Sequence record: NC_025447.1
DNA: 64,000 nucleotides
Source of the DNA: Escherichia phage 121Q
Strand: one strand, 5' to 3'
The first letter of the stretch is position 1, and the number at the start of each line of letters is the position of its first letter. The notes under the pieces are model-generated. The model worked only from the letters and a program-made list of their open reading frames with translations. It had not been told where the DNA came from and did no database searches. The position numbers were made by a program, and so were the translations under genes. Positions 44,488 through 57,889 of this stretch are shown here, in pieces.

Positions 44488-44537
44488 AGTTTACATCAAG
44501 GGGGAAATGGTTCTCCCCACTAATAAGGAGTTTTACA

Positions 44538-44759: not shown

Positions 44760-44765
44760 TAACCA

Positions 44766-44792
44766 GGGGGATCAAACGATCCCCTTTATTTT
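44766..44792 (+). terminator. intrinsic terminator
   Basis: GGGGGATC-AAAC-GATCCCC hairpin then TTTATTTT. Confidence 0.7.
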
Positions 44793-44824
44793 GCAGTACT
44801 GAATCATTTAATAGACGGATCTAT

Positions 44825-44836
44825 GCACCCTGTGGG
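44825..44836 (-). repeat. dispersed element copy (reverse orientation)
   Basis: GCACCCTGTGGGTTAG inside an about 80-bp block also seen at 42667-42740. Confidence 0.5.
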
Positions 44837-45005
44837 TTAGTGACTATCTCGTCTTTATGTAGGTATTATGCCAGTACTGGATGCAGTTGTCAAGACTTTT
44901 TTTTCAAATACTTTTATATTAAAGTACTTGATAATAGTTTTTAAACGCGTATAATGTTTTACATCTAATCGGGAATACTCCCTAGTACTAACAAAGGATA
45001 TACAA

Positions 45006-45305
45006 ATGAAAACTGCAATCATCGCCCTGGCTTTATCTGTTTCCTCTTTCGCTGTTAACGCTTCCGTTGATGTACAGAAAGAAAAATTCATTCAGTGCAC
45101 TGTTGCAATGACTAACGAGGAAACGGCTGAGATCGTTACCAAATCCCTGGAACTGGCCCCTGCAATGTTTGCTAATGGCCCGTACCATGAAGAAGATGAT
45201 CAGGGTAGCACGACCATCTATTACGATGCAAAAAGTAAACGCGGTTCTGTCACTGTAATGGATACAGAGAAAGTTACATTCACTGGCGTAATTAATTGTT
45301 TATAA
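45006..45305 (+). CDS. secreted small protein, Cys-pair family
   Basis: signal peptide MKTAIIALALSVSSFAVNA; Cys in mature N-terminal region and Cys 2 aa from end. Confidence 0.65.
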   Translation: MKTAIIALALSVSSFAVNASVDVQKEKFIQCTVAMTNEETAEIVTKSLELAPAMFANGPYHEEDDQGSTTIYYDAKSKRGSVTVMDTEKVTFTGVINCL

Positions 45306-45322
45306 TATAGTACTGAATCACT

Positions 45323-45352
45323 AGCCCACTATAAGGAGTGGGCTTTTTTTAT
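45323..45352 (+). terminator. intrinsic terminator
   Basis: AGCCCACT-n6-AGTGGGCT hairpin then TTTTTTT. Confidence 0.75.
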
Positions 45353-45543
45353 TGTAGGATTGTAGTACTGGTATACTTTGAAAATAGTTTTAAAAAAGTA
45401 GTTGACATTACCAGGGAAAAGCGTAGAATGTATTACATCAAGACGGGGAACATTAAGTAGACCGCCAGTAAGTCGAATGAAAAACTGGACACGTCAAACA
45501 AACTTTGATAAACTAACTTAAACTTTAATTGAGGATTTATAAA

Positions 45544-46026
45544 ATGGCTAATGTAAAATCATTTCTGAAAGCACTGATTTCTAACGATACTGTCATTGCT
45601 GCTGAATTGCTGGCTGACCTGGATAATGATACCATGAAAGCAGTACGCAACAATTTTAACATTGCTTACAGTGAAGCGAAAGAACTACAAGCCAAAAAGG
45701 TAGCAGAACTGGAAGAACAGAAAAAAGCCCGTGAAGCAGAACTGCAAGCAACAATAGAAAGTATTCAGGCGGCGGTGTCTGGTTTAGATCTGGAAGTGGT
45801 TATTGAAATGGCACATAAAGCCCTGGCGGTTAAGTACGGTGAAGATAAGCCGGAATCTAAGCCTAAAAAATGGATTCAAGAACGTGTTACGGTTGTCCTT
45901 GATAACGGGGAAGAACATTTGATTCCTGTACGCGGTAACTGCATTGCGGTAGTACTGGATGCTATCAAAGAAAGCGGTATGACTCGCGAGGAATGGATCG
46001 AATCTCACCGCAAAATTGAAGCATAA
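45544..46026 (+). CDS. hypothetical protein, Lys/Glu-rich helical
   Basis: ATG 45544 with SD GAGGA; upstream TTGACA-N17-TAGAAT promoter at about 45407. Confidence 0.6.
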   Translation: MANVKSFLKALISNDTVIAAELLADLDNDTMKAVRNNFNIAYSEAKELQAKKVAELEEQKKAREAELQATIESIQAAVSGLDLEVVIEMAHKALAVKYGEDKPESKPKKWIQERVTVVLDNGEEHLIPVRGNCIAVVLDAIKESGMTREEWIESHRKIEA

Positions 46027-46047
46027 CATTTAAAGTACTGAATCACT

Positions 46048-46074
46048 AGCCCACTTATACAGTGGGCTTTTTTG
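46048..46074 (+). terminator. intrinsic terminator
   Basis: AGCCCACT-n5-AGTGGGCT hairpin then TTTTT; same element as 45323. Confidence 0.75.
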
Positions 46075-46300
46075 TGTCTATAGTATTCCATGCCGTCAGC
46101 ACCTCATAGAATCGATTCTAACGCATTAAACTGATTATCTGATGCATCGCCCTAGCTGGTGGAGTTAAGGCCGTTAGAATGCGATTGAGAGCGTTTAAAG
46201 TATTTTGCAAAAAGTAATAAAAAGTACTTGCACGATTCAGAGATTAGCGTATAATGTTTTACATCAAGGCGAAACACCTTAACTAACTGAGGATATAAAG

Positions 46301-46453
46301 ATGAATACTTATGAACTGGATTGTTTCACGTTACAAGTAATGTCAGTATGCAGCAAGAAAGATTGGTCATCAAAGGAATTTAAAGCAGTTATTGCGTGTG
46401 CAAAACACGGCAAGACTATCAATGAAACGGCATCAATCATTGATAAACTTTAA
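46301..46453 (+). CDS. hypothetical small protein (50 aa)
   Basis: not in ORF track; SD TGAGGA 8 nt before ATG; downstream of TTGCAC...TATAAT promoter. Confidence 0.45.
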   Translation: MNTYELDCFTLQVMSVCSKKDWSSKEFKAVIACAKHGKTINETASIIDKL

Positions 46454-46461
46454 AAAATAGT

Positions 46462-46489
46462 TTGACAATAGTTTTAAGTACTGTATAAT
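46462..46489 (+). promoter_or_regulatory. sigma70-like promoter TTGACA-N16-TATAAT
   Basis: TTGACA 46462, TATAAT 46484. Confidence 0.6.
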
Positions 46490-46522
46490 ATTTTACATCA
46501 ACTACTGAGAAGGATTTAAAAA

Positions 46523-46750
46523 ATGGCTATCATCATCACTTACGTATCTGGCACTACTGGCACTTCTAGCACTGTTGCAGTACTGACCAACAAGAAAGGT
46601 GCGGAACTTCATTCTGCAATGAATACCTGGGCGGTGAATGAGTTCGGTCAGTGGGCTAGTGTAGAATACATTGAAACCTATCAAGTGCCGTCTATTAGCT
46701 TAACTGATTTAGGTGTAGATCGTATCCTTTGCCTGGATGAATTAAACTAA
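46523..46750 (+). CDS. hypothetical protein
   Basis: 75-aa ORF, SD AAGGA. Confidence 0.6.
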   Translation: MAIIITYVSGTTGTSSTVAVLTNKKGAELHSAMNTWAVNEFGQWASVEYIETYQVPSISLTDLGVDRILCLDELN

Positions 46751-46835
46751 AAAGTACTTGCAAAGTAAATCGGATAAAGTATAATACATTACATCAAGGG
46801 GAGAAATGATTCTCCCCACTAAGAGGAAACTAAAA

Positions 46836-46979
46836 ATGAAAACTTGTCAATGTGGTAAAAAATCTATCACTGGTTTGAAACGGGGCGTTGCTCTTTGTCA
46901 GTATCACTATAACGCTCAAGTATGGGGTAAAGAGTGGGCAGACCAGGTGGAAGCTGTAAAGAAAGCAAAAAGTAAGTAA
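46836..46979 (+). CDS. small Cys-containing protein (47 aa), possible zinc ribbon
   Basis: not in ORF track; promoter, GGGGAGAAATGATTCTCCCC stem-loop, SD AGAGGAA; CQCG...LCQYH. Confidence 0.45.
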   Translation: MKTCQCGKKSITGLKRGVALCQYHYNAQVWGKEWADQVEAVKKAKSK

Positions 46980-47060
46980 AATTATTATCACAGTACTATT
47001 GACATAGTTTGATAGTACTGGCATAATAGATTTTATCAAGACAACTAAGAGGAAACAATA

Positions 47061-47273
47061 ATGGCTATCATTACTAAAATCAAAGTTAACAAATCACTGG
47101 TTAAACTTGAACAAGTGAAAGCAGGTTATAAAGTATCGTGGTGCGGTATGTATCGGATGTTCACCGATATAGACAATGCAATCAAGTACTACACTGACAC
47201 CGTTGCCTCATTCGTTCGTTCTGATGTAGTACTGGCAGTACATGCACATAAAGCAGCGAAAGAAAGTAAGTAA
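47061..47273 (+). CDS. hypothetical protein
   Basis: 70-aa ORF behind TATTGACA...GGCATAAT promoter, SD AGAGGAA. Confidence 0.6.
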   Translation: MAIITKIKVNKSLVKLEQVKAGYKVSWCGMYRMFTDIDNAIKYYTDTVASFVRSDVVLAVHAHKAAKESK

Positions 47274-47364
47274 AAATATTATCACAGTACTATTGATATA
47301 GTTTGATAGTACTGGCATAATAGATTTTATCAAGACAACACATATTAATTTAAGGAATACTAAA

Positions 47365-47688
47365 ATGGCTAAAACTATCATCAACACCGTTTCCCTGGCT
47401 GCAATCCGTGCAATCAATGTTGACGGTAAACGTTGGACTGATTCATATGGCAATACTTATCATTCTTGTCATGTAAGCGTCGAACTGGATAACGGTTTGA
47501 ATGATCTGGCGGTTGAATCATTTACTTATGGCTATGAAGATGCATATCAACAAACGGCGTTATCTCTCTTAAAGGAATCAGTAGACGGGCTTAATACTGA
47601 TGAAACCTCCCTTACTCGTTTGTGCAATGATCTTAATATCCCGTTGCATTGTACTGTACAGAATGTTAAACGCAAAAAAGATCTTTAA
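47365..47688 (+). CDS. hypothetical protein, paralog of 53575 gene
   Basis: RWTDSYGNTYHSCHVS and FTYGY blocks shared with 53575-53898 protein. Confidence 0.65.
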   Translation: MAKTIINTVSLAAIRAINVDGKRWTDSYGNTYHSCHVSVELDNGLNDLAVESFTYGYEDAYQQTALSLLKESVDGLNTDETSLTRLCNDLNIPLHCTVQNVKRKKDL

Positions 47689-47768
47689 TTAGCTTTACTT
47701 TATGCAGATACTTTTATATAGTGTCTGCATAGGGGAAAGAAATTAAATTAACTTAAGAGGATCGTATA

Positions 47769-48038
47769 ATGAAAAATATCAGTACTTTAATCGATGCAGG
47801 TACACATGTTCGTCGGTCAATGGTTGCAACCAGTACTACAAAACAAGTAGCAAGCGGTTATCTTGTATTTGTACACGAAGGAAAGCTATTGGAACGTTCA
47901 ATCAATTTTGATGTTAAAAACAATTGCCGTTTTATTATTTTTAAGCGTGAACAATATAAAATTGATTTGCCAGCAAAGCCCATAAGCGGGGCGTACAACG
48001 TGCAATCATTGTTTGAGCGTCAACCATACACCTATTAA
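47769..48038 (+). CDS. hypothetical protein
   Basis: SD AAGAGGA; preceded by ATGCAGATAC/GTGTCTGCAT hairpin. Confidence 0.6.
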   Translation: MKNISTLIDAGTHVRRSMVATSTTKQVASGYLVFVHEGKLLERSINFDVKNNCRFIIFKREQYKIDLPAKPISGAYNVQSLFERQPYTY

Positions 48039-48089
48039 TCAAAACATCGTTAGCGGTCGATTTAGGCCGCTTATATTGGGGATTATACC

Positions 48090-48260
48090 ATGAACGTTAA
48101 TCAAGTACTGAATGAAGTTGAAAGCATCATTAAACCAATGAAACGTATTGATGCTGTTCCTACACCGGAAGAATGCCGCCTTTATGAGCGTTACAGTGTG
48201 GAACAAGCCCAGGAAATGGCCCGTATCCGTCCGGTTGCCAGTACTGATAAGGCGGCGTAA
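48090..48260 (+). CDS. hypothetical small protein (56 aa)
   Basis: not in ORF track; ATG with SD GGGGA. Confidence 0.45.
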   Translation: MNVNQVLNEVESIIKPMKRIDAVPTPEECRLYERYSVEQAQEMARIRPVASTDKAA

Positions 48261-48261
48261 T

Positions 48262-48471
48262 ATGCTTACTGTACAGGATAAGATCGACATCTTAAAGGTT
48301 AATATGTATGTGATTGATGCAGATCCTGAAAAAGTATTTGCATACGATGATTCTAATCGTAGTCCTTTTTATTGTAGTCATGTAGTTGGATACGTGCCGT
48401 TAGGGTATGTTATCGAAAGAGTGGTTGATGAAGCATACAAACATTTTTTAGAAAATAATACTTGCAATTAG
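48262..48471 (+). CDS. hypothetical protein
   Basis: ATG 48262 immediately after upstream stop (track start 48148 lies inside the previous gene). Confidence 0.5.
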   Translation: MLTVQDKIDILKVNMYVIDADPEKVFAYDDSNRSPFYCSHVVGYVPLGYVIERVVDEAYKHFLENNTCN

Positions 48472-48538
48472 TTTTCAGTACTGTATAATTGTTTACATAG
48501 AGGGGGGAATGGTTCTCCCCGATACTAGGAGAATCAAA

Positions 48539-48691
48539 ATGAAACAATACAACGCTCGGTTTGATGTTACTATCGGCAACGGCAAAGGTCAATTTTCTTT
48601 CAGTACTCGTAGGAGTTATACAGAAAACTTCCTGCGTAATTGTGCACTGACCGCCGCACAAATTAAACATTACTTTCAGGCTAAAAAATGA
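48539..48691 (+). CDS. hypothetical small protein (50 aa)
   Basis: promoter, GGGGGGAATGGTTCTCCCC stem-loop, SD AGGAG, ATG 48539. Confidence 0.55.
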   Translation: MKQYNARFDVTIGNGKGQFSFSTRRSYTENFLRNCALTAAQIKHYFQAKK

Positions 48692-48777
48692 AATCATTGG
48701 CTTATTACAGTTCGGCCCTGGTCGGTGCATTGATCGCGGCATTGTTAGTAACTTATCTATTCTTTATGGTGATTTAA

Positions 48778-48915
48778 ATGAATCCTAACGGTTTAATTTA
48801 CAGTACTCCTAAAACGAAAGCAGATAAAGCGAAAGCACGTAAAGCGAAAGTAAAGCAGTACATCAAGCAAGGCATGACACGCAAAGCGGCATTGCTTAAA
48901 GCTAAAAATAAATGA
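48778..48915 (+). CDS. small basic protein (45 aa), Lys/Ala-rich
   Basis: follows a 29-aa hydrophobic mini-ORF (48688-48777); terminator immediately downstream. Confidence 0.35.
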   Translation: MNPNGLIYSTPKTKADKAKARKAKVKQYIKQGMTRKAALLKAKNK

Positions 48916-48922
48916 AAAAAGT

Positions 48923-48946
48923 GGTTGACTTCGGTCAGCCATTTTG
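48923..48946 (+). terminator. intrinsic terminator, UUCG-loop hairpin
   Basis: GGTTGACTTCGGTCAGCC then ATTTT. Confidence 0.7.
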
Positions 48947-48978
48947 CTATTATATATTCATTGAGAGATAGCTCACTA

Positions 48979-48991
48979 GCCCACAGGGTGC
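48979..48991 (+). repeat. dispersed CTAGCCCACAGGGTGC element copy
   Basis: ACTAGCCCACAGGGTGCAGGAGTGTATCTAT. Confidence 0.55.
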
Positions 48992-49138
48992 AGGAGTGTA
49001 TCTATTGTATAATGATTGAGTACTGAAAACTATTTTAAAGTATTTGATAAAAAGTACTTGCAAACTATCTCAATGAGCGTATAATGTTTTATATCGCAAG
49101 GGGAAACGGTTTCCTCTCCAAATAAAAGGAATACCAAA

Positions 49139-49477
49139 ATGATCTCTATCGCTCAATCTAACTTTGAAAACGAAATCATCGCTCAGGCACTGCGTTTAAA
49201 TGATGGTCGGGCCGAAATCAATTACGGTTTCAATAGTGGTGGATGTGAAAAATATCAGTACTTTGTAACGGCTGATGGCTGTGTCCTGGGTATCAATACA
49301 GTTATTGTAAACATTCAGAAAATTAATTTCAATGATCCAGACGATAGCCAGTTTTACATCACGGGCGTAGACGTGAACTATGAGGATGACTCACTAACTG
49401 ATGATCACACTGGCGAGAAGTTAGAAAGTGCATACGGTGAAGATGATTATCAGTCAGTACCAGAAGATTTTGAATAA
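49139..49477 (+). CDS. hypothetical acidic protein
   Basis: promoter, GGGGAAACGGTTTCCTC stem-loop, SD AAGGA. Confidence 0.6.
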   Translation: MISIAQSNFENEIIAQALRLNDGRAEINYGFNSGGCEKYQYFVTADGCVLGINTVIVNIQKINFNDPDDSQFYITGVDVNYEDDSLTDDHTGEKLESAYGEDDYQSVPEDFE

Positions 49478-49491
49478 TATTAAAAAATAGT

Positions 49492-49519
49492 TTGACAATA
49501 GTTTTTAGTACTGTATAAT
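49492..49519 (+). promoter_or_regulatory. sigma70-like early promoter TTGACA-N16-TATAAT plus stem-loop
   Basis: TTGACA 49492, TATAAT 49514, GGGGAGAATAGTTCTCCCC hairpin. Confidence 0.65.
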
Positions 49520-49572
49520 TAATTACATCAAGGGGAGAATAGTTCTCCCCACTAACAGAGAGAGAAAACAAA

Positions 49573-49785
49573 ATGGCTAATATCCGCACTGTACTGAAAA
49601 ATGCAAAACAAGTTTTATTTTCTGATCATGAAAATTTCAACAAGGATATCACTGGCGTTCGGAATATCAAAGATGTAAAAAATGTTATGGGTATCTATTG
49701 CAATATGAAACGTGTTGGCACGTTCGGCGATAAAGTACTATACCAGGCAGGGGATTACAATTTTACACTGACTATCATTAACTAA
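49573..49785 (+). CDS. hypothetical protein
   Basis: 70-aa ORF after promoter/stem-loop/SD. Confidence 0.6.
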   Translation: MANIRTVLKNAKQVLFSDHENFNKDITGVRNIKDVKNVMGIYCNMKRVGTFGDKVLYQAGDYNFTLTIIN

Positions 49786-49876
49786 AAATATTATCACAGT
49801 ACTATTGACAACGTTTGATAGTACTGGCATAATAACTTTTATCAAGACAACGCATATTAATTTAAGGAATACTAAA

Positions 49877-50056
49877 ATGGCTATTATCGCAAAAACTGAA
49901 ATCATCGGCCTGGATTCTATCATCATGACGTTTGAAGATCAAAAAGGGATGTATGTAGTTTCCTATGGTGATTATGTTCGGGAGTATGAAACAGTAGACG
50001 AAGCCTTTGAAAGTTACATTCGCCAGGTTAATAAAGCATACGACGATTACCGCTAA
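49877..50056 (+). CDS. hypothetical small protein (59 aa)
   Basis: ATG 49877 with the same AAGGAATACTAAAATGGCT initiation region as the 47365 gene; track start 49805 lies in the promoter. Confidence 0.55.
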   Translation: MAIIAKTEIIGLDSIIMTFEDQKGMYVVSYGDYVREYETVDEAFESYIRQVNKAYDDYR

Positions 50057-50155
50057 AATATATTACCAGTACTATTAAATCTATTGACAATGTTTGATAG
50101 TACTGTATAATAAGTTTTATAAACAGTAGTTAACTTAACCTAAGAGAGAAAAATC

Positions 50156-50299
50156 ATGACAGCATTAGATTCATTCATCGACGCAGTACTGGCAAAAACT
50201 GGCGAGGATCTGACCGCAGAACAATACGCGATGATCGAACAATGTCAGCAAGACGGTAAATCGGTGAAAGATACTGTTAAGATTATCCGCAAGATGTAA
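50156..50299 (+). CDS. hypothetical small protein (47 aa)
   Basis: not in ORF track; SD AAGAGAG; terminator-like hairpin follows. Confidence 0.45.
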   Translation: MTALDSFIDAVLAKTGEDLTAEQYAMIEQCQQDGKSVKDTVKIIRKM

Positions 50300-50305
50300 G
50301 ATTAT

Positions 50306-50334
50306 AGCCCACTGGTTAACGCTGGTGGGCTTTA
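50306..50334 (+). terminator. terminator-like hairpin
   Basis: GCCCACTGG-n5-CTGGTGGGC imperfect hairpin followed by TTTAATCATTT. Confidence 0.45.
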
Positions 50335-50404
50335 ATCATTTACCCTATACAATGCCAGTACTAAACCGTTTAACTCGTTAGAATGCGTTACAGGACGTTT
50401 AACA

Positions 50405-50602
50405 ATGATTAGCATGAAATCAGTACAAAAACAAATAGAAACATTATCAAAAATTAAACGTAAACAGTACTCATTAGAATATACAATCAATGGTAACTAT
50501 CATCTAATGAAAGAAAATAATTTTATAGTCATTGATGAATCATTGCAGATCATTAGTATAGTACTGAAAGCATTAATCAATGACAGAAAAAAGTTAAAAT
50601 AA
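50405..50602 (+). CDS. hypothetical protein
   Basis: 65-aa ORF, weak SD. Confidence 0.4.
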   Translation: MISMKSVQKQIETLSKIKRKQYSLEYTINGNYHLMKENNFIVIDESLQIISIVLKALINDRKKLK

Positions 50603-50662
50603 TCTATTGACAATATTATCCAGTACTGGCATAATACTTACATCAAGACGAGAACGTCACTA

Positions 50663-50675
50663 ACCCATAGGGTGC
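50663..50675 (+). repeat. dispersed element copy (variant)
   Basis: ACCCATAGGGTGCACAAATGTAACTAT. Confidence 0.45.
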
Positions 50676-50689
50676 ACAAATGTAACTAT

Positions 50690-50780
50690 ATAATATCGAT
50701 CAATAAATGATCAAAAAAGTACTGGATCAATTTAGCATAAGGCGTATAATTCTGATCAAATCTTGATCAAAGGCAATAAA
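50690..50780. repeat. cluster of five TGATCAA (GATC) sites
   Basis: CGATCAA, TGATCAA, GGATCAA, TGATCAA, TGATCAA within about 90 bp of non-coding DNA. Confidence 0.5.
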
Positions 50781-50931
50781 CGTAGTTGAAATTATATAGA
50801 AAGTACAAAGGCGTTACCATTCGTGGTAATGCTGGGGAATATGTAGTATCATACGGTTTGAATAAAATCAGTACTAGTAGTATTATTGTAGCATTACAGT
50901 ACTATAGTATTTTTATAATGAGGTTAAAATA

Positions 50932-51189
50932 ATGGCTGTTGGATTCGCGAAGGACGGGGCCGAGCAAGACGAGATTAACGCAGTGATTCAGGCCGCTGTA
51001 AACCACGCTAGAACGCAAATTAACGCACAAATAGAATCACTGATACATTGCCTCGACTGCGGCGATAAAATCCCTGAGAATCGCCGCCTGGCCGTTAAGG
51101 GGTGTAAGTACTGCATCACTTGCCAGGCTGATCATGATAGCATATTCAAACGCAATCCCCGTAATTGTTGGCATAGATCTATGAGATAA
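50932..51189 (+). CDS. TraR/DksA-family C4 zinc-finger protein
   Basis: CLDCGDKIPENRRLAVKGCKYCITCQ matches the TraR/DksA C4 zinc-finger pattern (compare F-plasmid TraR CEACGNPIPEARRK...CVECQ); SD GAGG. Confidence 0.75.
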   Translation: MAVGFAKDGAEQDEINAVIQAAVNHARTQINAQIESLIHCLDCGDKIPENRRLAVKGCKYCITCQADHDSIFKRNPRNCWHRSMR

Positions 51190-51195
51190 AAAGTA

Positions 51196-51223
51196 TTGAC
51201 AGTACTGTTAGTTAGTGTATAAT
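51196..51223 (+). promoter_or_regulatory. sigma70-like promoter TTGACA-N16-TATAAT
   Basis: TTGACA 51196, TATAAT 51218, SD TGAGGA. Confidence 0.6.
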
Positions 51224-51252
51224 ATTTTATATCTTAACTGAGGATTGAAATC

Positions 51253-51609
51253 ATGGGTATACAACATATCACGCGTACTACAGACAATGGTGAGATCACT
51301 GGCTATCAAGTACAAGGCAAAGTAGCACAATTGCAGTACTGGTTTGTTAAACGTGGCATTGTTGCACCGGATCTTGATTATGATCGTGTAGCGTTTATTG
51401 ATTCTCTTTATGTTGATCCCGATAATCGCGGTAACGGTGAAGGTACTGAGTTAATGAATGCCTTTATTGATGCCGCCGATGATTCAGATTGTATCATCTT
51501 AGAATGCGATACTGGAGAAGATAACGAGTTTAATCTTAAAGAATGGTATGAAGGTTTTGGATTTGAAGTACTGATTAACTGCGAATATCCTATAATGATT
51601 TTATCCTAG
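51253..51609 (+). CDS. GNAT-family N-acetyltransferase-like protein
   Basis: VDPDNRGNGEGTELMNAFIDAA resembles GNAT motif A; WYEGFGFE motif. Confidence 0.55.
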   Translation: MGIQHITRTTDNGEITGYQVQGKVAQLQYWFVKRGIVAPDLDYDRVAFIDSLYVDPDNRGNGEGTELMNAFIDAADDSDCIILECDTGEDNEFNLKEWYEGFGFEVLINCEYPIMILS

Positions 51610-51688
51610 TACTTGCAATTAGTTTTAAGTACTGTATAATAGTTTACATGAAGGGGAGAATAGTTCTCCCCACTACAAGGAAAGACAA

Positions 51689-51877
51689 ATGCAAAACTTA
51701 TCAAGTATTTTAGTACAAGATGATTTCGGTAATCCTGGAAGTGCTATCATCGTTCGGGGCAATAAGGCAACGTTTGTTATTGCTGGTGGACCTGTACAGC
51801 GTAGCATTAAAAACAATGCAGTTACAATCAATAATGTTCGCTATCGCTTAGATAAAGAATTGATTCATAAACTTTAA
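51689..51877 (+). CDS. hypothetical protein
   Basis: promoter, GGGGAGAATAGTTCTCCCC stem-loop, SD AAGGAAA. Confidence 0.6.
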   Translation: MQNLSSILVQDDFGNPGSAIIVRGNKATFVIAGGPVQRSIKNNAVTINNVRYRLDKELIHKL

Positions 51878-51962
51878 AAAAGTATTTGACAAAGCATTGT
51901 AGTACTGTATAATAGTTTACATGAAGGGGAGAAATGATTCTCCCCACTAAGAGGAAAGAAAC

Positions 51963-52175
51963 ATGCAAGGTCAACTAATCGTTCGTAAATGGTCTGATAC
52001 TAACGAAAAACCGTGGGATGTTCAATATATCGGACCGGACGGTGTTTCACGTTATCAACCTGGCGTAACGCATAGTACTGAGCAATATGCCGCCGCTCAC
52101 CGCGAACGCCTGTTAGAATCTATGAAACAGGGATTCTGTGAAAAATTCATTCAAGATCATTGGCTGAAAGATTAA
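51963..52175 (+). CDS. hypothetical protein
   Basis: promoter, GGGGAGAAATGATTCTCCCC stem-loop, SD AGAGGAA. Confidence 0.6.
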   Translation: MQGQLIVRKWSDTNEKPWDVQYIGPDGVSRYQPGVTHSTEQYAAAHRERLLESMKQGFCEKFIQDHWLKD

Positions 52176-52194
52176 TATATAAGGAGTACAGCTT

Positions 52195-52287
52195 ATGCAA
52201 ATGAATCCGATGATTGTTGTGTTAGCTGTACTTATGATCATTCATGCCATCGTAGAAGTACTAACACAATCAGGAGTAATACAATGA
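52195..52287 (+). CDS. small hydrophobic peptide (30 aa)
   Basis: not in ORF track; SD AAGGAG 8 nt before ATG. Confidence 0.35.
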   Translation: MQMNPMIVVLAVLMIIHAIVEVLTQSGVIQ

Positions 52288-52454
52288 TCCAAGTAGAATT
52301 ATCAGTACTGAAAGATCTGTTTTATCGGTTAGGCACTACTGGCGAATACCCTAAAGGGGATACTGCTAAACTATACATTGCATTGGATGTATGGCAACGT
52401 AATGAACTGGCTAACGCCTGGCGTAAAGGTAAATCAGAGGGGATTGCAGCATGA
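52284..52454 (+). CDS. hypothetical small protein (56 aa)
   Basis: not in ORF track; ATGA overlap with upstream stop. Confidence 0.4.
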   Translation: MIQVELSVLKDLFYRLGTTGEYPKGDTAKLYIALDVWQRNELANAWRKGKSEGIAA

Positions 52455-52600
52455 AAGAATTTTTATTCGAAGTAGTGTTCCAGGGCGTAGGAAGTAACCA
52501 ACTGATTCGATCAAGTGGTTACAATGTTAACCAGGCATGGAATAACATTAAACAAATGTACCCGAACGCTATCACATATCGCAACCCAAAACAAGTTTAA
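52451..52600 (+). CDS. hypothetical small protein (49 aa)
   Basis: not in ORF track; ATGA overlap; followed by terminator. Confidence 0.4.
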   Translation: MKEFLFEVVFQGVGSNQLIRSSGYNVNQAWNNIKQMYPNAITYRNPKQV

Positions 52601-52614
52601 AAAGAATAAAAAAA

Positions 52615-52640
52615 GGGATTGACTCCGGTCAGTCCCTTTG
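52615..52640 (+). terminator. intrinsic terminator, UCCG-loop variant
   Basis: GGGATTGAC-TCCG-GTCAGTCCC then TTTG; followed by GCTATTATATA. Confidence 0.7.
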
Positions 52641-52666
52641 CTATTATATACGCATAGACAAAAACT

Positions 52667-52679
52667 AGCCCACAGGGTG
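52667..52679 (+). repeat. dispersed CTAGCCCACAGGGTGC element copy
   Basis: ACTAGCCCACAGGGTGCATAAATGTATCTAT. Confidence 0.55.
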
Positions 52680-52783
52680 CATAAATGTATCTATTATATG
52701 CTGGTGGCTAGTACTATCAAGTACTGAAAACTATTTTTAAAAAGTACTTGCATTGTACTTAGAATCAAGTATAATGTTTTACA

Positions 52784-52858
52784 TCAGGACGGGGAACGAA
52801 ACAAGTAACCCCGTTAAGTAGTCCAGGAGTAAGACATACGAAAACCTCCCCTGATAAA
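52784..52858 (+). ncRNA. candidate small RNA or leader element (copy 2)
   Basis: near-identical to 42810-42890; promoter (TTGCAT 52748, TATAAT 52770) upstream; no ORF. Confidence 0.3.
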
Positions 52859-52863
52859 ATAGT

Positions 52864-52891
52864 TTGACAATAGAAATTAAACAAGTATAAT
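52864..52891 (+). promoter_or_regulatory. sigma70-like promoter TTGACA-N16-TATAAT
   Basis: TTGACA 52864, TATAAT 52886, SD AGAGGAA before ATG 52922. Confidence 0.6.
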
Positions 52892-52921
52892 ACTTACATC
52901 AACCACAAAGAGGAATACAAA

Positions 52922-53122
52922 ATGAAACATTTTACTTTCGGTGTAGTAGGCTTTACAGTATCCAGCGGCGTTTATAAATCAGAACGCGGTGCTAAAAATG
53001 CAGCAAGTCGGGCGTATGGTTCACAGCGTGACTTACAGGTCGGTTATATTAGTAACATTAATAACATGTTTATTCCTGTTTCACAGCGTAAAGCGGGTAA
53101 CATGAAATGGGAAACAATTTGA
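52922..53122 (+). CDS. hypothetical protein
   Basis: 66-aa ORF behind consensus promoter. Confidence 0.6.
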   Translation: MKHFTFGVVGFTVSSGVYKSERGAKNAASRAYGSQRDLQVGYISNINNMFIPVSQRKAGNMKWETI

Positions 53123-53131
53123 TAAAATAGT

Positions 53132-53159
53132 TTGACAATAGTTTTTAGTACTGTATAAT
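53132..53159 (+). promoter_or_regulatory. sigma70-like early promoter TTGACA-N16-TATAAT plus stem-loop
   Basis: TTGACA 53132, TATAAT 53154, GTGGGGAATAGTTCCCCAC hairpin. Confidence 0.65.
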
Positions 53160-53211
53160 ATTTTACATCAAGTGGGGAATAGTTCCCCACCTAACAAAGA
53201 GAGAAATTAAA

Positions 53212-53487
53212 ATGCGGATTCTACTGACAGCTAACGAAATCGAGCAAGTACTGACTACTAACCTGGAAGACTGGAAACGTGATGCAGATATCCAGGCGGT
53301 GCAATGGCTCAATGATAAGTTAACGCCGGATGATTTAAGTAAGATTGTAGATCCACAATTCTATGAAGATATTCACGACACGGCTTTAAGCGTCGAGGAT
53401 GTACTTGATAAGCACTACATTGATATTGATTTGCAGGTTTACGGTCGTAAAAACTTTATCACTATTCACGACATTTATAATAATTAA
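53212..53487 (+). CDS. hypothetical acidic protein
   Basis: 91-aa ORF after promoter/stem-loop/SD. Confidence 0.6.
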   Translation: MRILLTANEIEQVLTTNLEDWKRDADIQAVQWLNDKLTPDDLSKIVDPQFYEDIHDTALSVEDVLDKHYIDIDLQVYGRKNFITIHDIYNN

Positions 53488-53574
53488 GTATTGACAAAGT
53501 ATCTTAGTACTGTATAATAGTTTACATCAAGGCAGGGGAATGGTTCCCCTCCTAACTAAAAGAGAGAAATTAAA

Positions 53575-53898
53575 ATGACTATGATCCTTACCCAGAAAGT
53601 AGAAATGAAAATTGTAACTTCCTTTGACATTAAAGTCAATCGGTGGACTGATAGCCACGGCAATACTTACCACTCATGCTACGTGTCTGCATTGATTGGT
53701 GACCGCTGGGAAGACCTGGGACATGAAACCTTTACTTACGGTTACGGTACACAAGGCGAATACACGGGCTTGGAGATCATTAAAGAAACTGTAATAGGTT
53801 TCAACCCGAAAGAGAAAGTACTACACAGAATTGAGGATGAGATCAACAAAGAAATTACAGTTCGTTACTACGATGTAAAACGTAAGAAAGATATGTAA
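53575..53898 (+). CDS. hypothetical protein, paralog of 47365 gene
   Basis: shared NRWTDSHGNTYHSCYVS and FTYGYG blocks; promoter and stem-loop upstream. Confidence 0.65.
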   Translation: MTMILTQKVEMKIVTSFDIKVNRWTDSHGNTYHSCYVSALIGDRWEDLGHETFTYGYGTQGEYTGLEIIKETVIGFNPKEKVLHRIEDEINKEITVRYYDVKRKKDM

Positions 53899-53997
53899 TA
53901 GAATCCATTTAAAGTACTATTTGACATTGCCCAGATAGTACTTTATAATAGACTCTAACTTGTAGTACTAATTAACTTAACTAATAGGATGTACACC

Positions 53998-54393
53998 ATG
54001 ATTACTAAATTCTTCGCTACCCGTGAACAAGCTCGCATCGTTGCCCGTGAAGAAGGTGAAACATTTAAAGACATGGGCAAAGATGCACCGAAAGGACAAC
54101 GCTGGGCGGTACAGTTCAAAGAGATCTCTGATATTGTGAATTCACCTGAGCCTGTACTTACAGCAGCAGAACTAAAGCAAGCTCAAGAACTGGCTGAAGT
54201 ACTGAACGCTCAAGATGACTTTTTGAAAGGTTCTGATATTGAAGTTACAGTTAACGCAAATGCATGGACTCACGCGGATCACCTGGCAAACCTTAAGCGT
54301 CCAAGTGAACTGATTCGTAACCAGAAAGAGATCCGTCATGACCGTAAAGGAAACCGTGTAACAGTATACAGTAAACGCCGCCAGGTTATCTAA
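53998..54393 (+). CDS. hypothetical protein, paralog of 41941 gene
   Basis: ATG 53998 (SD TAGGA); shared FATREQARIVAREEGETFKDMG and HDRKGNRVTVY blocks. Confidence 0.6.
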   Translation: MITKFFATREQARIVAREEGETFKDMGKDAPKGQRWAVQFKEISDIVNSPEPVLTAAELKQAQELAEVLNAQDDFLKGSDIEVTVNANAWTHADHLANLKRPSELIRNQKEIRHDRKGNRVTVYSKRRQVI

Positions 54394-54416
54394 TAACTTT
54401 GCAGTACTAACAACAC

Positions 54417-54442
54417 GGCGGGAATATTTCCCGCCTTTTTTA
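54417..54442 (+). terminator. intrinsic terminator
   Basis: GGCGGGAA-TAT-TTCCCGCC hairpin then TTTTTT. Confidence 0.75.
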
Positions 54443-54455
54443 TAGGATAAACAAA

Positions 54456-54710
54456 ATGATTAAGGTTCAACTATCAAACGATAATGTATTACGGGTACAC
54501 TATAAAGCTCCACAGAGAATCATCACAAAGGCCGTACAGCTTGCTAATGAGTTTATTAATGGTAGTCTATTGCCTAGGAAGTTAAGCAACGGGAAACTAC
54601 GTGTAATCGACGTAGACACTAACAATAGAATAGTGATCGAGAGTACTGGAAAAATTAATCTATATGAACACCAACAATACAATAAAAAAATAAAACTAAT
54701 ATCACGTTGA
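54456..54710 (+). CDS. hypothetical protein
   Basis: 84-aa ORF, SD TAGGA. Confidence 0.55.
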   Translation: MIKVQLSNDNVLRVHYKAPQRIITKAVQLANEFINGSLLPRKLSNGKLRVIDVDTNNRIVIESTGKINLYEHQQYNKKIKLISR

Positions 54711-54763
54711 CAGTACTCAAATGTTTTAGTATTATGTATCTATACCAACACAGGAGAAACAAA

Positions 54764-54982
54764 ATGAAATTATCTAAAATCGAAAAGAAAACTATTGATG
54801 AAGCAGTGAAGCACGGTTATACCTTTCGTAATGATTCACACTTCACCAGTTTTCAACAGGGAAACCGTACCATCAAAAAACTCATTGATAAAGGTTTACT
54901 CACTAAGGTTGATAACGGGAACGGTGTAGAATATCAACCGACAGAAGACGCATTATCACTAAAGAAATATTCTATTATCTAA
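54764..54982 (+). CDS. hypothetical protein, possible winged-helix DNA-binding
   Basis: ATG 54764 after TTGACA...TATTAT promoter and SD AGGAG; winged-helix call is a weak guess from RTIKKLIDKGLLTK. Confidence 0.55.
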   Translation: MKLSKIEKKTIDEAVKHGYTFRNDSHFTSFQQGNRTIKKLIDKGLLTKVDNGNGVEYQPTEDALSLKKYSII

Positions 54983-55039
54983 TTGACAGTACTCAAATGT
55001 TTTAGTACTATGTACGCATACCAACACGGGGAAAACAAA

Positions 55040-55282
55040 ATGATTACTTTAGAAAAACGTATCAAAGAGACTACAACGCTGGTGGAACTGTTAACCGTTC
55101 TTAAATGCCGGGTAACTCCATTCAGTACACCGGACTTTATCAACATGGTGGACGTTAACGGTCGCTATCGTATTGCGGTCGAACAAGGTACGGCAAAAGT
55201 ATTCAGTACTAAAAATACGCGTGAAGTATTCCACGCAGTTCAAGTAAAAAAAGTAGTTGCCATTGATAGTAAAGTACTGTAA
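55040..55282 (+). CDS. hypothetical protein
   Basis: ATG 55040 behind a duplicated copy of the 54711-54763 promoter/leader. Confidence 0.55.
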   Translation: MITLEKRIKETTTLVELLTVLKCRVTPFSTPDFINMVDVNGRYRIAVEQGTAKVFSTKNTREVFHAVQVKKVVAIDSKVL

Positions 55283-55313
55283 TATAGTTTCATTAACTCA
55301 AGGAGTCAACACA

Positions 55314-55898
55314 ATGCGTAACTATACTAAATTCATCCGTTCACTTCATGCAATGGAAACCAACAAAGAGATCCTTTCAGCTTGTCGGTTAGCTGGACTG
55401 GAGATCGTCGGTGCGGGTTCTTCCCGTATTGTATTCGCTTTAAATGATCGGTTAGTGATTAAGGTCGCGAATTGTGATGCGGGTGTAGAACAAAATGAAA
55501 CTGAATGTAAGGTATGGAATTTTTTAGATTATGACCGTCCGCACCTTAAACAGTTCTTTGCCAAGGTGCATATGCATTTATGCGATCCTGATAATCTGCT
55601 TATTGTTATGGATCGTTTGAGTACTGCAAGCAAAGGCAGTGTAAAGCACGTAACCGCATGTAATGAGTTAAAGTACAATATTAAACGTAACACTATTGAA
55701 CGCCATCACCATTTCGCTGATGCTCTCAATCACGTTGATGATACATTATCCACACTAACGATAAGAGATATCAGAAAACAGAATATCGGCCAGGATCGCA
55801 ACGGCTTGATTAAAGTACTTGATTACGGTTTAACCCGCAATATCTGGAATCAGTACTATAAAAAACGTGATGTTAACGCGATAACTATAACACGATAA
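55314..55898 (+). CDS. protein kinase-like protein
   Basis: GAGSSRIVF Gly-rich loop, VIKV lysine, RDIRKQN catalytic-loop-like and VLDYG motifs; SD AAGGAG. Confidence 0.6.
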   Translation: MRNYTKFIRSLHAMETNKEILSACRLAGLEIVGAGSSRIVFALNDRLVIKVANCDAGVEQNETECKVWNFLDYDRPHLKQFFAKVHMHLCDPDNLLIVMDRLSTASKGSVKHVTACNELKYNIKRNTIERHHHFADALNHVDDTLSTLTIRDIRKQNIGQDRNGLIKVLDYGLTRNIWNQYYKKRDVNAITITR

Positions 55899-55912
55899 AA
55901 AAGATTAAAAAA

Positions 55913-55938
55913 GGGATTGACTCCAGTCAGTCCCTTTG
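55913..55938 (+). terminator. intrinsic terminator, variant hairpin
   Basis: GGGATTGACTCCAGTCAGTCCC then TTTG. Confidence 0.65.
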
Positions 55939-55969
55939 CTATTATATATTCATTGAGAGATAACTCACT

Positions 55970-55983
55970 GACCCATAGGGTGC
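55970..55983 (+). repeat. dispersed element copy
   Basis: ACTGACCCATAGGGTGCGGAAGTGTATCTAT. Confidence 0.5.
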
Positions 55984-56122
55984 GGAAGTGTATCTATTAT
56001 ATAAGTATTCAGTACTGAAAACTATTTTATAAAAAGTACTTGCAAACTATCTCAATGAGCGTATAATGTTTTATATCGAGAGGGGGAAATGGTTCTCCCT
56101 GGTACTAAAAGGAATCAAGACG

Positions 56123-56344
56123 ATGGCTACTATGACCTGCGTTCACGCTTCAAATCTTCTGAATGATGCAGCATTTAAAGCAGGTGAAGAATATCAATGC
56201 TATCGGGATGAAAATAAAAAAGTTTTCGTCGTTGATGCTAACGGTTTCCATATTGAATTGCAATCCGGTTTCACTGGCATTGATGGTAAATCTGTATGGG
56301 GCGTCCAGGACGATAACGGCACATATCATTTTAAACGTAATTAA
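56123..56344 (+). CDS. hypothetical protein
   Basis: ATG 56123 after promoter, GGGGGAAATGGTTCTCCC stem-loop and SD AAGGAA. Confidence 0.6.
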   Translation: MATMTCVHASNLLNDAAFKAGEEYQCYRDENKKVFVVDANGFHIELQSGFTGIDGKSVWGVQDDNGTYHFKRN

Positions 56345-56347
56345 GTA

Positions 56348-56375
56348 TTGACAAAGTATATCAGTACTGTATAAT
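56348..56375 (+). promoter_or_regulatory. sigma70-like early promoter TTGACA-N16-TATAAT plus stem-loop
   Basis: TTGACA 56348, TATAAT 56370, GGGGAGAATAGTTCTCCCC hairpin. Confidence 0.65.
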
Positions 56376-56428
56376 AGTTTACATCAAGGGGAGAATAGTT
56401 CTCCCCACCAATAAAAGGAAACAAAATT

Positions 56429-56701
56429 ATGTCCAGCTACTCCGCTACTATGATTATTAAAGATATGAACGGTAATCCTACTTCTGCTGGTGGATCATTT
56501 GGTAACATTAATTTAGATGGGCGGTTATCAATTGAATCAGCCATCAATGCAGCGAAAGAAGTTTTTAAGAATGAATGTACTGTAAGCAAGCTGGATTATA
56601 TGGGCTTCGCTATCGAGAAAACTAATCGTTTTGTGGACTACAAAAAACCACTGATGATTGATACTAACCTGAAAGCAAACGAAGTGGAATACTTATTATG
56701 A
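56429..56701 (+). CDS. hypothetical protein
   Basis: 90-aa ORF, SD AAGGAAA. Confidence 0.6.
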   Translation: MSSYSATMIIKDMNGNPTSAGGSFGNINLDGRLSIESAINAAKEVFKNECTVSKLDYMGFAIEKTNRFVDYKKPLMIDTNLKANEVEYLL

Positions 56702-56889
56702 CAGTAGAAGAAGTTAAAAAAGTACTGGCAGTACTACGCTATCATAATCATTGTAAGGTGAAGAATGATCCTGATTATCTTGATTCATCGCTGGAAGAGG
56801 ATACACTACAAGCAATAAGCCATATGCAAAAAATGCTTAAGCGTATGACCGAAAAGAACAGGCCGGACTATATCGGAAATAAAATTTAA
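56698..56889 (+). CDS. hypothetical protein
   Basis: 63-aa ORF overlapping upstream stop. Confidence 0.55.
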   Translation: MTVEEVKKVLAVLRYHNHCKVKNDPDYLDSSLEEDTLQAISHMQKMLKRMTEKNRPDYIGNKI

Positions 56890-56972
56890 AAAGTACTTGC
56901 ATTGTAAGTAAAACAAAGTATAATGTTTTACATAGGGGGAGATATCCTCCCCCACTAATAAGGAGTACTAAA

Positions 56973-57197
56973 ATGGCTAACTTTGATGAACTGATGCGGG
57001 AAGTAGCTACCCTGGCAGAAGAGAAGAAATCATTTGATTCTATCTATAACACCGCTTACAGTGATTCAGTACTGGCATGTACTCAGGATCAAAAAGATGA
57101 ACTGATCGCCACCTATCATGAAGCATGGAAGTATTACCGCCAATGGGAGAAAGAAGAAAGCGAGTCTACCATCAACGGCATCAATAATCTAATCTAA
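56973..57197 (+). CDS. hypothetical protein
   Basis: promoter, GGGGGAGATATCCTCCCCC stem-loop, SD AAGGAG. Confidence 0.6.
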   Translation: MANFDELMREVATLAEEKKSFDSIYNTAYSDSVLACTQDQKDELIATYHEAWKYYRQWEKEESESTINGINNLI

Positions 57198-57271
57198 AGT
57201 TTTATTTCAGTACTATTGACAATGCGTGATAGTACTGATGTGATAACTTTACTAACTAAAGGGGAAACATA

Positions 57272-57529
57272 ATGGAACAGTTCACACAATATCGGGTAAA
57301 TCCTCAAGCTATGGCCTACGTAGAAGACCATAAAACGTTACCAGTACTAACACCAATTAAAGGCCATATCTATCGTGCTATGCAGTGGAATAACGCCTAT
57401 AATGGCTATAAAGCGGTATCCGCTGCAATGTACTTAGGGGATGGCGAATGGTTTGATCCAAATAATCCTGGTGCACTCGATAGTACTGAAAAAATGACAT
57501 GGGCCGACTATATCGAAGATATCTCATAA
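57272..57529 (+). CDS. hypothetical protein
   Basis: 85-aa ORF behind TATTGACA...GATGTGATAACT promoter-like block. Confidence 0.55.
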   Translation: MEQFTQYRVNPQAMAYVEDHKTLPVLTPIKGHIYRAMQWNNAYNGYKAVSAAMYLGDGEWFDPNNPGALDSTEKMTWADYIEDIS

Positions 57530-57617
57530 AAACTATTTGACAGTACTACAAGATAATGTATAATGTTTTACATAGAGCGGGGGAATAGTTCTCCCGCACC
57601 TTTAGGAGTAAAACATT

Positions 57618-57818
57618 ATGTCAATCGCTAACGAATTGGTTGCAGTACTGAATGAAGCAAAAGCCAACTGCATCGATGTACAGATCAAAGAGCTTGGCAA
57701 TGGCTTGATCGGCTGTACTTGTACAGTGCAAACGGCTACCGATTATCGGGAAGTGGAATCACTCGAATCACTGGTACGGTATATTAAAATCCTGGTAGAA
57801 GATTGGAGAATCATCTAA
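57618..57818 (+). CDS. hypothetical protein
   Basis: promoter, GCGGGGGAATAGTTCTCCCGC stem-loop, SD TAGGAG. Confidence 0.6.
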   Translation: MSIANELVAVLNEAKANCIDVQIKELGNGLIGCTCTVQTATDYREVESLESLVRYIKILVEDWRII

Positions 57819-57837
57819 CAAAAAAGAATAAAAAAAG

Positions 57838-57863
57838 GGATTGACTCCGGTCAGTCCCTTTGC
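57838..57863 (+). terminator. intrinsic terminator, UCCG-loop variant
   Basis: GGGATTGACTCCGGTCAGTCCC then TTTG. Confidence 0.7.
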
Positions 57864-57889
57864 TATTATATACGCATAGACAAAAACTA

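Follow-up and report, generated by a model that had tools for sequence, protein, structure and literature searches.

The 64,000-nucleotide stretch of the genome of Escherichia phage 121Q analyzed here (sequence record NC_025447.1; hereafter the window) contains two adjacent small genes on the + strand, one (50932..51189) for an 85 amino acid (aa) C4 zinc-finger protein of the DksA/TraR superfamily and the other (51253..51609) for a 118 aa acetyltransferase of the GNAT family. The favored reading, given a probability of about 65%, is that they are independent early accessory genes of an array located in a direct terminal repeat, the first with a proposed TraR-like action on the host RNA polymerase (RNAP) and the second with a proposed role in acetylating a host macromolecule. 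The two genes would be neighbors through the shuffling of cassettes, each with its own promoter, of which the array is composed, and not because they share a function. The original prediction, which was based on the sequence of the window, had suggested that they could form a joint module for host takeover, and this part of it was not upheld by the comparison with related phages.

The zinc-finger gene was found exactly where the original prediction had placed an 85 aa open reading frame (ORF). It has an ATG start with GAGG 8 nt upstream, and its product carries the pattern C40-x2-C43-x17-C61-x2-C64, with further cysteines at positions 58 and 79. Its assignment to the DksA/TraR superfamily, originally proposed from the C4 signature, is well founded, as residues 39-68 match the Pfam family PF01258 (zf-dskA_traR) with an E-value of 2.2e-11 and 44 bits, above the curated gathering threshold of 24.9 that defines membership, and PHROG 54 ("DksA-like zinc-finger protein") matches at 7e-19. 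The zinc ribbon, C40-x2-C43...C61-x2-C64 (51049..51123, + strand), includes the invariant I47-P48-x2-R51-R52, and the four cysteines and both arginines are invariant in a 40-sequence alignment of the family. R51 and R52 align with R48 and R49 of TraR, giving the protein the equivalents of this pair of globular-domain residues.

The protein begins with MAVGFAKDGAEQDE, and the place of the DxxDxA motif of TraR is occupied by the nearly invariant MAVGFAKDGAEQ. The family tip, M-A-V-G-F-A-K-D-G-A-E-Q, has A2, G4, G9, and Q12 invariant and F5, K7, D8, and A10 conserved at ≥90%, while the C-terminal tail FKRxPRNCWHRSMR is invariant in the phage clade and corresponds to GYNRRGSKDSQLR in the bacterial YbiI clade; in the same alignment these clade-specific N- and C-terminal motifs are better conserved than the ribbon. 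The best-matching solved sequence is YbiI (2KGO), aligned over its full length from residue 1 with E-values of 3e-11 (single sequence) and 6e-25 (profile); the corresponding values for TraR are 1e-5 and 2e-12, and the alignment runs only from about residue 18-21 onward. The AlphaFold2 (AF2) model, built from the 40-sequence alignment, consists of a helix (residues 7-31), the ribbon, a second helix (62-71), and a disordered, low-confidence tail, and Foldseek ranked at the top YbiI, RNAP-bound TraR (6N57 and 5W1S; TM-score ∼0.5, root-mean-square deviation 4.5 Å over 66 columns), and DksA. DksA proper, a protein of ∼150 aa with a two-helix coiled coil and residues contacting guanosine tetraphosphate (ppGpp), was ruled out, the phage protein having 85 aa and a single N-terminal helix, and the DksA profile NF033459 scored 13.7 bits, its cut-off being 105. 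By these sequence comparisons the protein is a member of the DksA/TraR superfamily that belongs to a YbiI-like clade and is not TraR proper, an assignment made because tip and tail differ and because the curated NCBIfam cut-offs detailed below were missed. The label "TraR-like" conceals a distinct clade, in which the defining motif of functional TraR homologues is missing.

The GNAT gene likewise starts with ATG, preceded by GAGG, and the segment resembling motif A on which its original assignment relied proved to be a genuine one. Two Pfam profiles exceed their gathering thresholds (PF00583 Acetyltransf_1 at 1.6e-9 and 38.5 bits against 20.7; PF13508 Acetyltransf_7 at 34.8 against 27) and PHROG 1249 ("acetyltransferase") matches at 2.4e-10, so that profile searches supported the assignments of both genes and failed for neither. 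Motif A, R59-G-N-G62-E-G64 (51427..51444, + strand), is the acetyl-CoA pyrophosphate-binding loop and is modeled between β4 and α3; motif B, N91...W98-Y99-E100-x-F102-G103-F104, lies at 51523-51564 (+ strand). A 52-sequence alignment shows no variation at R59, G62, G64, Y99, and F104 and almost none at N91, for which reason the acetyl-CoA site looks intact, and the preservation of both motifs, with Tyr99 in motif B, suggests that the protein would bind acetyl-CoA and transfer the acyl group.

The AF2 model obtained from the 52-sequence alignment reached a mean predicted local distance difference test (pLDDT) of 88 and a predicted TM-score of 0.81, with the topology β-β-α-β-α-β-α-β-β. The β4-α3-β5-α4-β6-β7 core is present and the helices α1-α2, normally found after β1, are absent, in agreement with the Acetyltransf_1 match, which spans only profile positions 53-116 of 116. 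As modeled, the protein is a compact variant of the canonical β1-α1-α2-β2-β3-β4-α3-β5-α4-β6-β7 fold. Foldseek returned many GNATs with a probability of 1.0 and a TM-score (query) of 0.5-0.65, led by Naa60, Naa50, Naa30, Ard1, and RimI, every target being 20-90 residues longer than the phage protein, and a profile search of the PDB placed Naa30 first (2.5e-7). No NCBIfam equivalog came near its cut-off. More specific names were discarded: the label "PaiA acetyltransferase" used in phage Turkey3 finds no PaiA-type or polyamine-specific signal, a diamine acetyltransferase appearing at just ∼7e-4 among generic GNATs; antibiotic or arsinothricin resistance acetyltransferases score 14-20 bits against NCBIfam cut-offs of 125-380; and toxins of the TacT/AtaT type give only generic GNAT-level matches (Foldseek ranks 35 and 47), the flanking genes being unrelated, self-promoted small early genes.

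The independence of the two genes emerges from their distribution. The zinc-finger gene occurs at ≥85% identity in 32 Asteriusvirus records, 12 of which do not appear in the full set of 23 records with the GNAT gene: PBECO4 (two records), slurp01, Sharanji, G17, BF17, ECO103 4-12-1, EC22.5-2, and four SD-series Salmonella phages. The homologue of the window gene at 51689 comes immediately after the zinc-finger gene in PBECO4 and SD-1_S14, and a different 107-aa gene is inserted one slot beyond; this arrangement reads as a mosaic at the level of cassettes, with the GNAT gene as a dispensable one. When 13 loci of other phages were scanned with hidden Markov models, the zinc-finger gene was detected in five, the GNAT gene in eight, and both in none, and the zinc-finger homologues of JS98, 7t3, and fENko-Kae01 have no GNAT neighbor. 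Co-occurrence and adjacency across relatives, as expected of a conserved module, were thus not found. Moreover, the GNAT gene appears to have its own promoter, as had been proposed: a perfect sigma-70 site, TTGACA-16-TATAAT (51196..51223, + strand; 12/12 match), with an A/T-rich discriminator (ATTTTAT), is predicted in the 63-bp intergenic gap.

As for the surroundings of the two genes, positions 50500-52200 are 89-93% identical in nucleotide sequence to the Asteriusvirus jumbo coliphages (350-385 kb; the PBECO4/121Q/phAPEC6 group). In vB_Ec-M-J the counterparts are EcMJ_029 ("DksA-like zinc-finger protein") and EcMJ_030 ("acetyltransferase"), located 12.3-13.0 kb into a 21,525-bp feature annotated as "Direct Terminal Repeats", and local BLAST identified window positions 39458-∼59640 as the counterpart of this repeat. 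Records that include both repeat copies contain the zinc-finger gene twice, and a terminal repeat of ∼21 kb has been established experimentally by restriction mapping in fEgEco12 (PMC13070987). The repeat-equivalent region is an array of ∼50 tiny genes, all on the + strand, and 24 promoters fitting TTG[AC][ACT]A-16/17-TATAAT were counted within ∼39458-59640 (∼20 kb). Nearly all of them have a 16-bp spacer and an A/T-rich discriminator that follows the pattern (A/G)NTTTACAT, the mean being 1.7 G/C per 7 nt, and a conserved hairpin of the 5′ untranslated region (UTR), GGGGAGAA...TTCTCCCC, is found downstream of many of them. Perfect TTGACA-N16/17-TATAAT sites number 15 in the whole window, every one of them in the + orientation, where chance alone would give 0.10. 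This context, consensus sigma-70 promoters within a direct terminal repeat, is compatible with an early, host-directed role, and in the related Rak2-like phage CBB the RpoD-like promoters before short ORFs, which reach into the terminal repeat, were proposed as markers of early host takeover (PMC5259590). The context makes a takeover role plausible, as has become the usual speculation in print about genes of this kind.

The early promoters form a uniform family, AAAAGTAyTTGACA/TTGCAA-N16-GTATAAT-(A/G)NTTTACATCAA, followed by the 5′ UTR hairpin GGGGAGAAnnGTTCTCCCC and then by a ribosome-binding site, with examples at window positions 44453, 46455, 49485, 51606, 51879, 53125, and 56033; the promoter of the GNAT gene is without this hairpin. 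One further gene of the array, EcMJ_024 of vB_Ec-M-J (113 aa; 2645-2986 of the locus excerpt, window ∼49.1-49.5 kb), is annotated as "DNA ligase" versus "hypothetical protein" in Turkey3, and the former label is probably an over-annotation, as 113 aa is too short for a ligase.

The zinc-finger gene appears to be expressed together with a different neighbor, orf48 (50786..50932, + strand; 48 aa, TTG start), whose stop codon overlaps the ATG of the zinc-finger gene (TAATG). In an alignment of seven genomes the variable sites at the three codon positions number 11/9/26 in orf48 and 6/13/30 in the zinc-finger gene, a pattern unlike that of the leader (12/13/11), which argues that orf48 is coding; indels occur in neither gene, and orf48 is annotated in Turkey3, PBECO4, and WPEC3. 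The GNAT gene, like the zinc-finger gene, shows conservation of the coding type. Translation of the zinc-finger gene is probably coupled to that of orf48, and the likely promoter of this small operon is a TG-extended site, TTGACA-17-CATAAT (50607..50635, + strand; 11/12 match), nearly invariant in the seven-genome alignment. A promoter within orf48, next to the zinc-finger ATG, was rejected on inspection, since the TATAAT at 50914-50919 is without a usable −35 element and leaves no space for a ribosome-binding site. Among the 51 ORFs that the + strand carries across the repeat-equivalent region (mean G+C content 0.398, standard deviation 0.041), the zinc-finger gene is the richest in G+C, with 0.49 overall and 0.52 at third codon positions, consistent with horizontal acquisition.

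Four observations concern this arrangement in other genomes. In TH47 (MT446416, UNVERIFIED) the orf48 homologue has an in-frame stop (…ALQ*YSIF…) with the zinc-finger gene intact downstream, which is either a sequencing error or a sign that orf48 is dispensable. In JS98 (2819-3001 of the locus excerpt) the stop of mobD.3 likewise overlaps the ATG of the zinc-finger homologue (TAATG), and translational coupling may be a conserved trait of the expression of this gene. The identical coupling prompted a search for homology between orf48 and MobD.3 of JS98; none was found, and the two proteins are unrelated. The RefSeq record of the type phage, PBECO4 (NC_027364, 1501-1758 of the locus excerpt) has no coding sequence annotated for its intact 85-aa zinc-finger gene.

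As for function, the elements described for active TraR are an N-terminal helix with DxxDxA, a ribbon with the equivalents of R48 and R49, and a C-terminal helix (PMC9239242). R48 contacts the rim helices of RNAP and R49 the β′ Si3 insertion, and the C-terminal helix contacts β Si1 (PMC9239242). The ribbon and the RR pair are present in the phage protein, and the AF2 model has a helix at residues 62-71, followed by a low-confidence tail whose sequence is unlike that of TraR. The proposal of a TraR/DksA-type binder of the secondary channel is supported by the ribbon and the arginines but not by the tip, where DxxDxA is absent. All five TraR homologues tested in one study bound RNAP, including two with an incomplete DxxDxA, and these two complemented a dksA deletion on induction (PMC9239242). 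In addition, overexpressed YbiI was reported to rescue the auxotrophy of a dksA mutant, as "data not shown" (PMC2613031). A literature search for YbiI returned no functional study besides this one, the name retrieving almost only ytterbium chemistry. Taken together, the architecture, the RR pair, the activity of homologues with an incomplete motif, and the rescue by YbiI make a TraR-like action the best guess for the 85-aa protein.

In the mechanism that is proposed, the zinc-finger protein would be made as the second cistron of the operon, after orf48, and would dock at the rim of the RNAP secondary channel through the RR pair and the ribbon, with its N-terminal helix inserted. The effect would be to destabilize short-lived open complexes, such as those of rRNA and ribosomal-protein promoters, while the phage early promoters, with consensus hexamers and A/T-rich discriminators, would be spared. 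This expectation follows from the known promoter selectivity of DksA and TraR, under which the phage promoters, if the protein acts like TraR, would form stable open complexes and escape inhibition. Because the tip is noncanonical (GFAKDGAEQ instead of DxxDxA), the potency or the exact effect may differ from that of TraR. The GNAT, for its part, would acetylate an amine on a host macromolecule, probably a protein.

Several points weigh against this reading. In the ungapped register D3, D6, and A8 of TraR stand opposite A6, G9, and E11 of the phage protein, so that DxxDxA is not conserved, and the profile alignment to TraR begins at position 21, past the tip. The AF2 model of the zinc-finger protein has a moderate pLDDT of only 69.8, with residues 1-5 below 50, and the NCBIfam cut-offs were missed for NF008243 (YbiI, 79.2 against 96), TIGR02419 (TraR subfamily, 50.1 against 59.7), and NF010268 (TraR, 30.4 against 108). 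To our knowledge, no member of the phage YbiI-like clade has been studied experimentally. The missing α1-α2 of the GNAT could mean that it has an unusual substrate site or requires a partner protein, and the substrate is not readable from the sequence. The 63-bp gap between the two genes contains no terminator-like site, so that co-transcription by read-through is possible. Finally, early timing and promoter use are predicted from sequence alone, and a search of the literature found no transcriptome for the genus Asteriusvirus.

These points lend some weight to other explanations. One of them, held to be unlikely although worth considering, is that the zinc-finger protein is of YbiI type and exerts no TraR-like control of initiation, its invariant GFAKDG tip and FKRxPRNCWHRSMR tail serving another function. 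The lack of DxxDxA, the terminal motifs that are more conserved than the ribbon, and the failure to reach any curated NCBIfam cut-off would all fit this explanation, as does the finding that C4 proteins annotated as DksA/TraR are not all DksA-like and can be inactive without DxxDxA and the C-terminal helix (PMC9239242). However, the RR pair and the overall architecture are kept, the model still matches the structure of RNAP-bound TraR, YbiI partially complements dksA, and homologues with an imperfect tip still bind RNAP. A similarly tentative proposal is that the YbiI-like clade is a mechanistically distinct class of secondary-channel effector, marked by the tip M-A-x-G-[FWY]-x-[KR]-[DE]-G-x-x-Q and the FKRxPRNCWHRSMR tail. 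If so, the Gly-rich, Lys/Asp-bearing tip would extend closer to the active site than DxxDxA does, the outcome would be different, for instance a ppGpp-independent shut-off with another promoter selectivity or a block of the access of Gre and DksA, and the clade would be a widespread, unstudied takeover factor of lytic phages. Far less probable than any of these is the cooperating module, in which the GNAT would acetylate RNAP or the zinc-finger protein itself while the latter occupies the secondary channel. The two genes are adjacent and on the same strand within the early array, with a short gap and no terminator-like site between them, and a phage GNAT that acts on RNAP has a precedent in Rac (gp28) of phiKMV-like phages, through which the alpha subunit of RNAP comes to be cleaved (PMC7552054); a similar role has been predicted for the GNATs of jumbo phages, with Rac cited as the precedent (PMC7824862). 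Nevertheless, more than a third of the Asteriusvirus records that keep the zinc-finger gene lack the GNAT, homologues of either gene in other phages stand without the other (0 of the 13 loci have both), and the promoters are separate, the zinc-finger gene being coupled to orf48.

For the GNAT, a less favored but conceivable explanation is that it is an anti-defense or strain-specific accessory factor, which would inactivate a host immunity protein or an immune signaling molecule by acetylating it, instead of a general takeover enzyme. AcrVA5, a small anti-CRISPR acetyltransferase, is reported to act in this way. The gene is patchy among very close relatives, as is typical of accessory counter-defense genes, and it is a self-promoted cassette of the early array: among phage records it was found in just 23, comprising 21 Asteriusvirus-type Escherichia phages (one with a frameshift), one Shigella phage, and Klebsiella 05F01 (48% identity). 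Homologues of 123 aa with 51-53% identity were found on 50-93 kb Logan contigs from Enterobacteriaceae samples (genes at ∼6001-6372), among ArdA-type anti-restriction, CcdA, and SocA/Panacea genes, and the domain also recurs in large multidomain proteins with DUF5661 and amidoligase. On the other side, the matches to sequences and structures of the PDB include no known anti-defense acetyltransferase, PADLOC found no match for the zinc-finger protein, the GNAT, or two neighboring small proteins, and the evidence from the neighborhoods is circumstantial, coming from unidentified contigs that matched no plasmid in PLSDB by megablast, no phage search having been made on them.

The wider family of the GNAT also gave some observations of its own. 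A profile search recovered compact GNATs of ∼134 aa with 35-42% identity, including members on T4-like phage contigs, one of which (134 aa) lies on a 173-kb contig with a GP88-family gene on one side and a gene of 959 aa on the other, and an exhaustive search yielded 433 cluster representatives at E ≤ 1e-3, mostly of 125-145 aa. The compact domain is also found within proteins of 600-1100 aa that contain DUF5661, Amidoligase_2, or NT5C; its companions in three of 887-1047 aa are DUF5661, Amidoligase_2, NT5C, and cytidylyltransferase-like domains, and such multidomain proteins recall the phage "polyvalent" proteins (PMC7824862). The 123-aa homologues of the Logan contigs are surrounded by many small genes, including, besides those already named, genes for an AAA_23 ATPase and a TROVE-like protein of 552 aa. 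A He_PIG Ig-repeat protein that matched the GNAT profile at 1e-28 was dismissed as spurious, as its 17 partial matches covered positions 7-77 only and Pfam found Ig repeats and no GNAT domain.

The zinc-finger protein is much more widely distributed. A tblastn search returned matches in 972 phage records, 144 of them at ≥60% identity over the full length. Beyond Asteriusvirus, the jumbo phages 7t3, SE_PL, and fENko-Kae01 carry it at ∼75% identity, the gene of fENko-Kae01 lying within the annotated terminal repeat, and many 170-kb T4-like phages, such as Moon, Merlin, JS98, Entb_45, and PEi20, carry it at 65-76%; the alignment to lambda-type Orf73 homologues is limited to the ribbon. In TH58 (MT446423 55248-55325) and JS09 (NC_024124 113281-113358) only the last 26 residues (YCITCQ...CWHRSMR) match, at 69-77%, and these partial matches look like truncated remnants of the gene. 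PHROG 25948 (54 positions, function unknown) is matched by the same 26 residues in its C-terminal half.

Upstream of orf48, the segment 50643..50700 (+ strand) of the leader contains a box, TCACTAACCCATAGGGTGCACAAATGTAACTAT (50657-50689), that is one of five copies in the window, and it is almost unvarying even in comparison with PBECO4 (85% identity overall). The box belongs to an intergenic element of ∼100 nt found at 48900-49040, 50600-50700, 52599-52699, 55897-55997, and 57821-57921. In this element a promoter-like TTGACT-17-TATTAT lies inside a 12-bp hairpin (AAAGGGATTGACTCCGGTCAGTCCCTTT), the copy at 50600 having the plain TTGACA-17-CATAAT instead, and the conserved box, (T)CACTAGCCCACAGGGTGCAnnAnTGTATCTAT, follows ∼25 nt past the promoter-like site. 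In four copies an ordinary early promoter comes directly after, so that the element would give just a short noncoding transcript; a small RNA and a regulatory site are both conceivable, and the 50600 copy varies less across genomes than the adjacent coding DNA. An Rfam scan of 44000-60000 (E ≤ 1) gave three sub-threshold chance matches, none of them within the leader.

With regard to significance, both are ordinary early genes that had been annotated before and whose families are very large and well known; near-identical proteins have been deposited in GenBank under the same names, so that the finding is not new. The only mildly novel point is the YbiI-like tip, a conserved N-terminus that is not DxxDxA, widespread in lytic enterobacterial myoviruses and uncharacterized. 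Such strong conservation without the defining motif of TraR makes the YbiI-like protein a reasonable candidate for biochemistry, the natural GNAT-plus and GNAT-minus isolates of Asteriusvirus offer a ready comparison for the function of the compact acetyltransferase, and the terminal-repeat array, whose consensus promoters are so uniform, lends itself well to asking how phage promoters stay immune to a secondary-channel regulator.

Among the known systems, the closest to the zinc-finger protein is YbiI of E. coli (88 aa, 2KGO, NF008243), which shares the N-terminal motif MA-x-G-[FW]-A-x-D-x-A...IN, the ribbon, and the RR pair. The two differ in the tail, GYNRRGSKDSQLR in the clade of YbiI versus FKRxPRNCWHRSMR in the phage clade, and in their setting, as YbiI is encoded by a chromosomal gene whose role is unknown, whereas the phage protein is the product of an early gene. 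TraR of the F plasmid and Orf73 of lambda are alike in size class, in the single N-terminal helix, the C4 ribbon, and, as modeled, a C-terminal helix, and in their origin from a mobile element with a proteobacterial host; compared with them, the phage protein has three more N-terminal residues and a conserved 14-residue tail. The small proteins of T4-like phages, orf95 of JS98 and the "zinc finger protein" of Citrobacter phages Moon and Merlin, are 65-76% identical over 85 residues and have the same terminal motifs, although JS98 orf95 is found in the tk-mobD-nrdC region of a 170-kb genome and not in a terminal repeat. The GNAT has both motifs, A and B, as well as the β4-α3-β5-α4-β6-β7 core in common with Naa30, Naa50, Naa60, RimI, and the compact phage GNATs of ∼125-145 aa. 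Rac is also a phage GNAT, expressed while the host RNAP is in use, and it can be likened to the GNAT described here at the level of the superfamily only.

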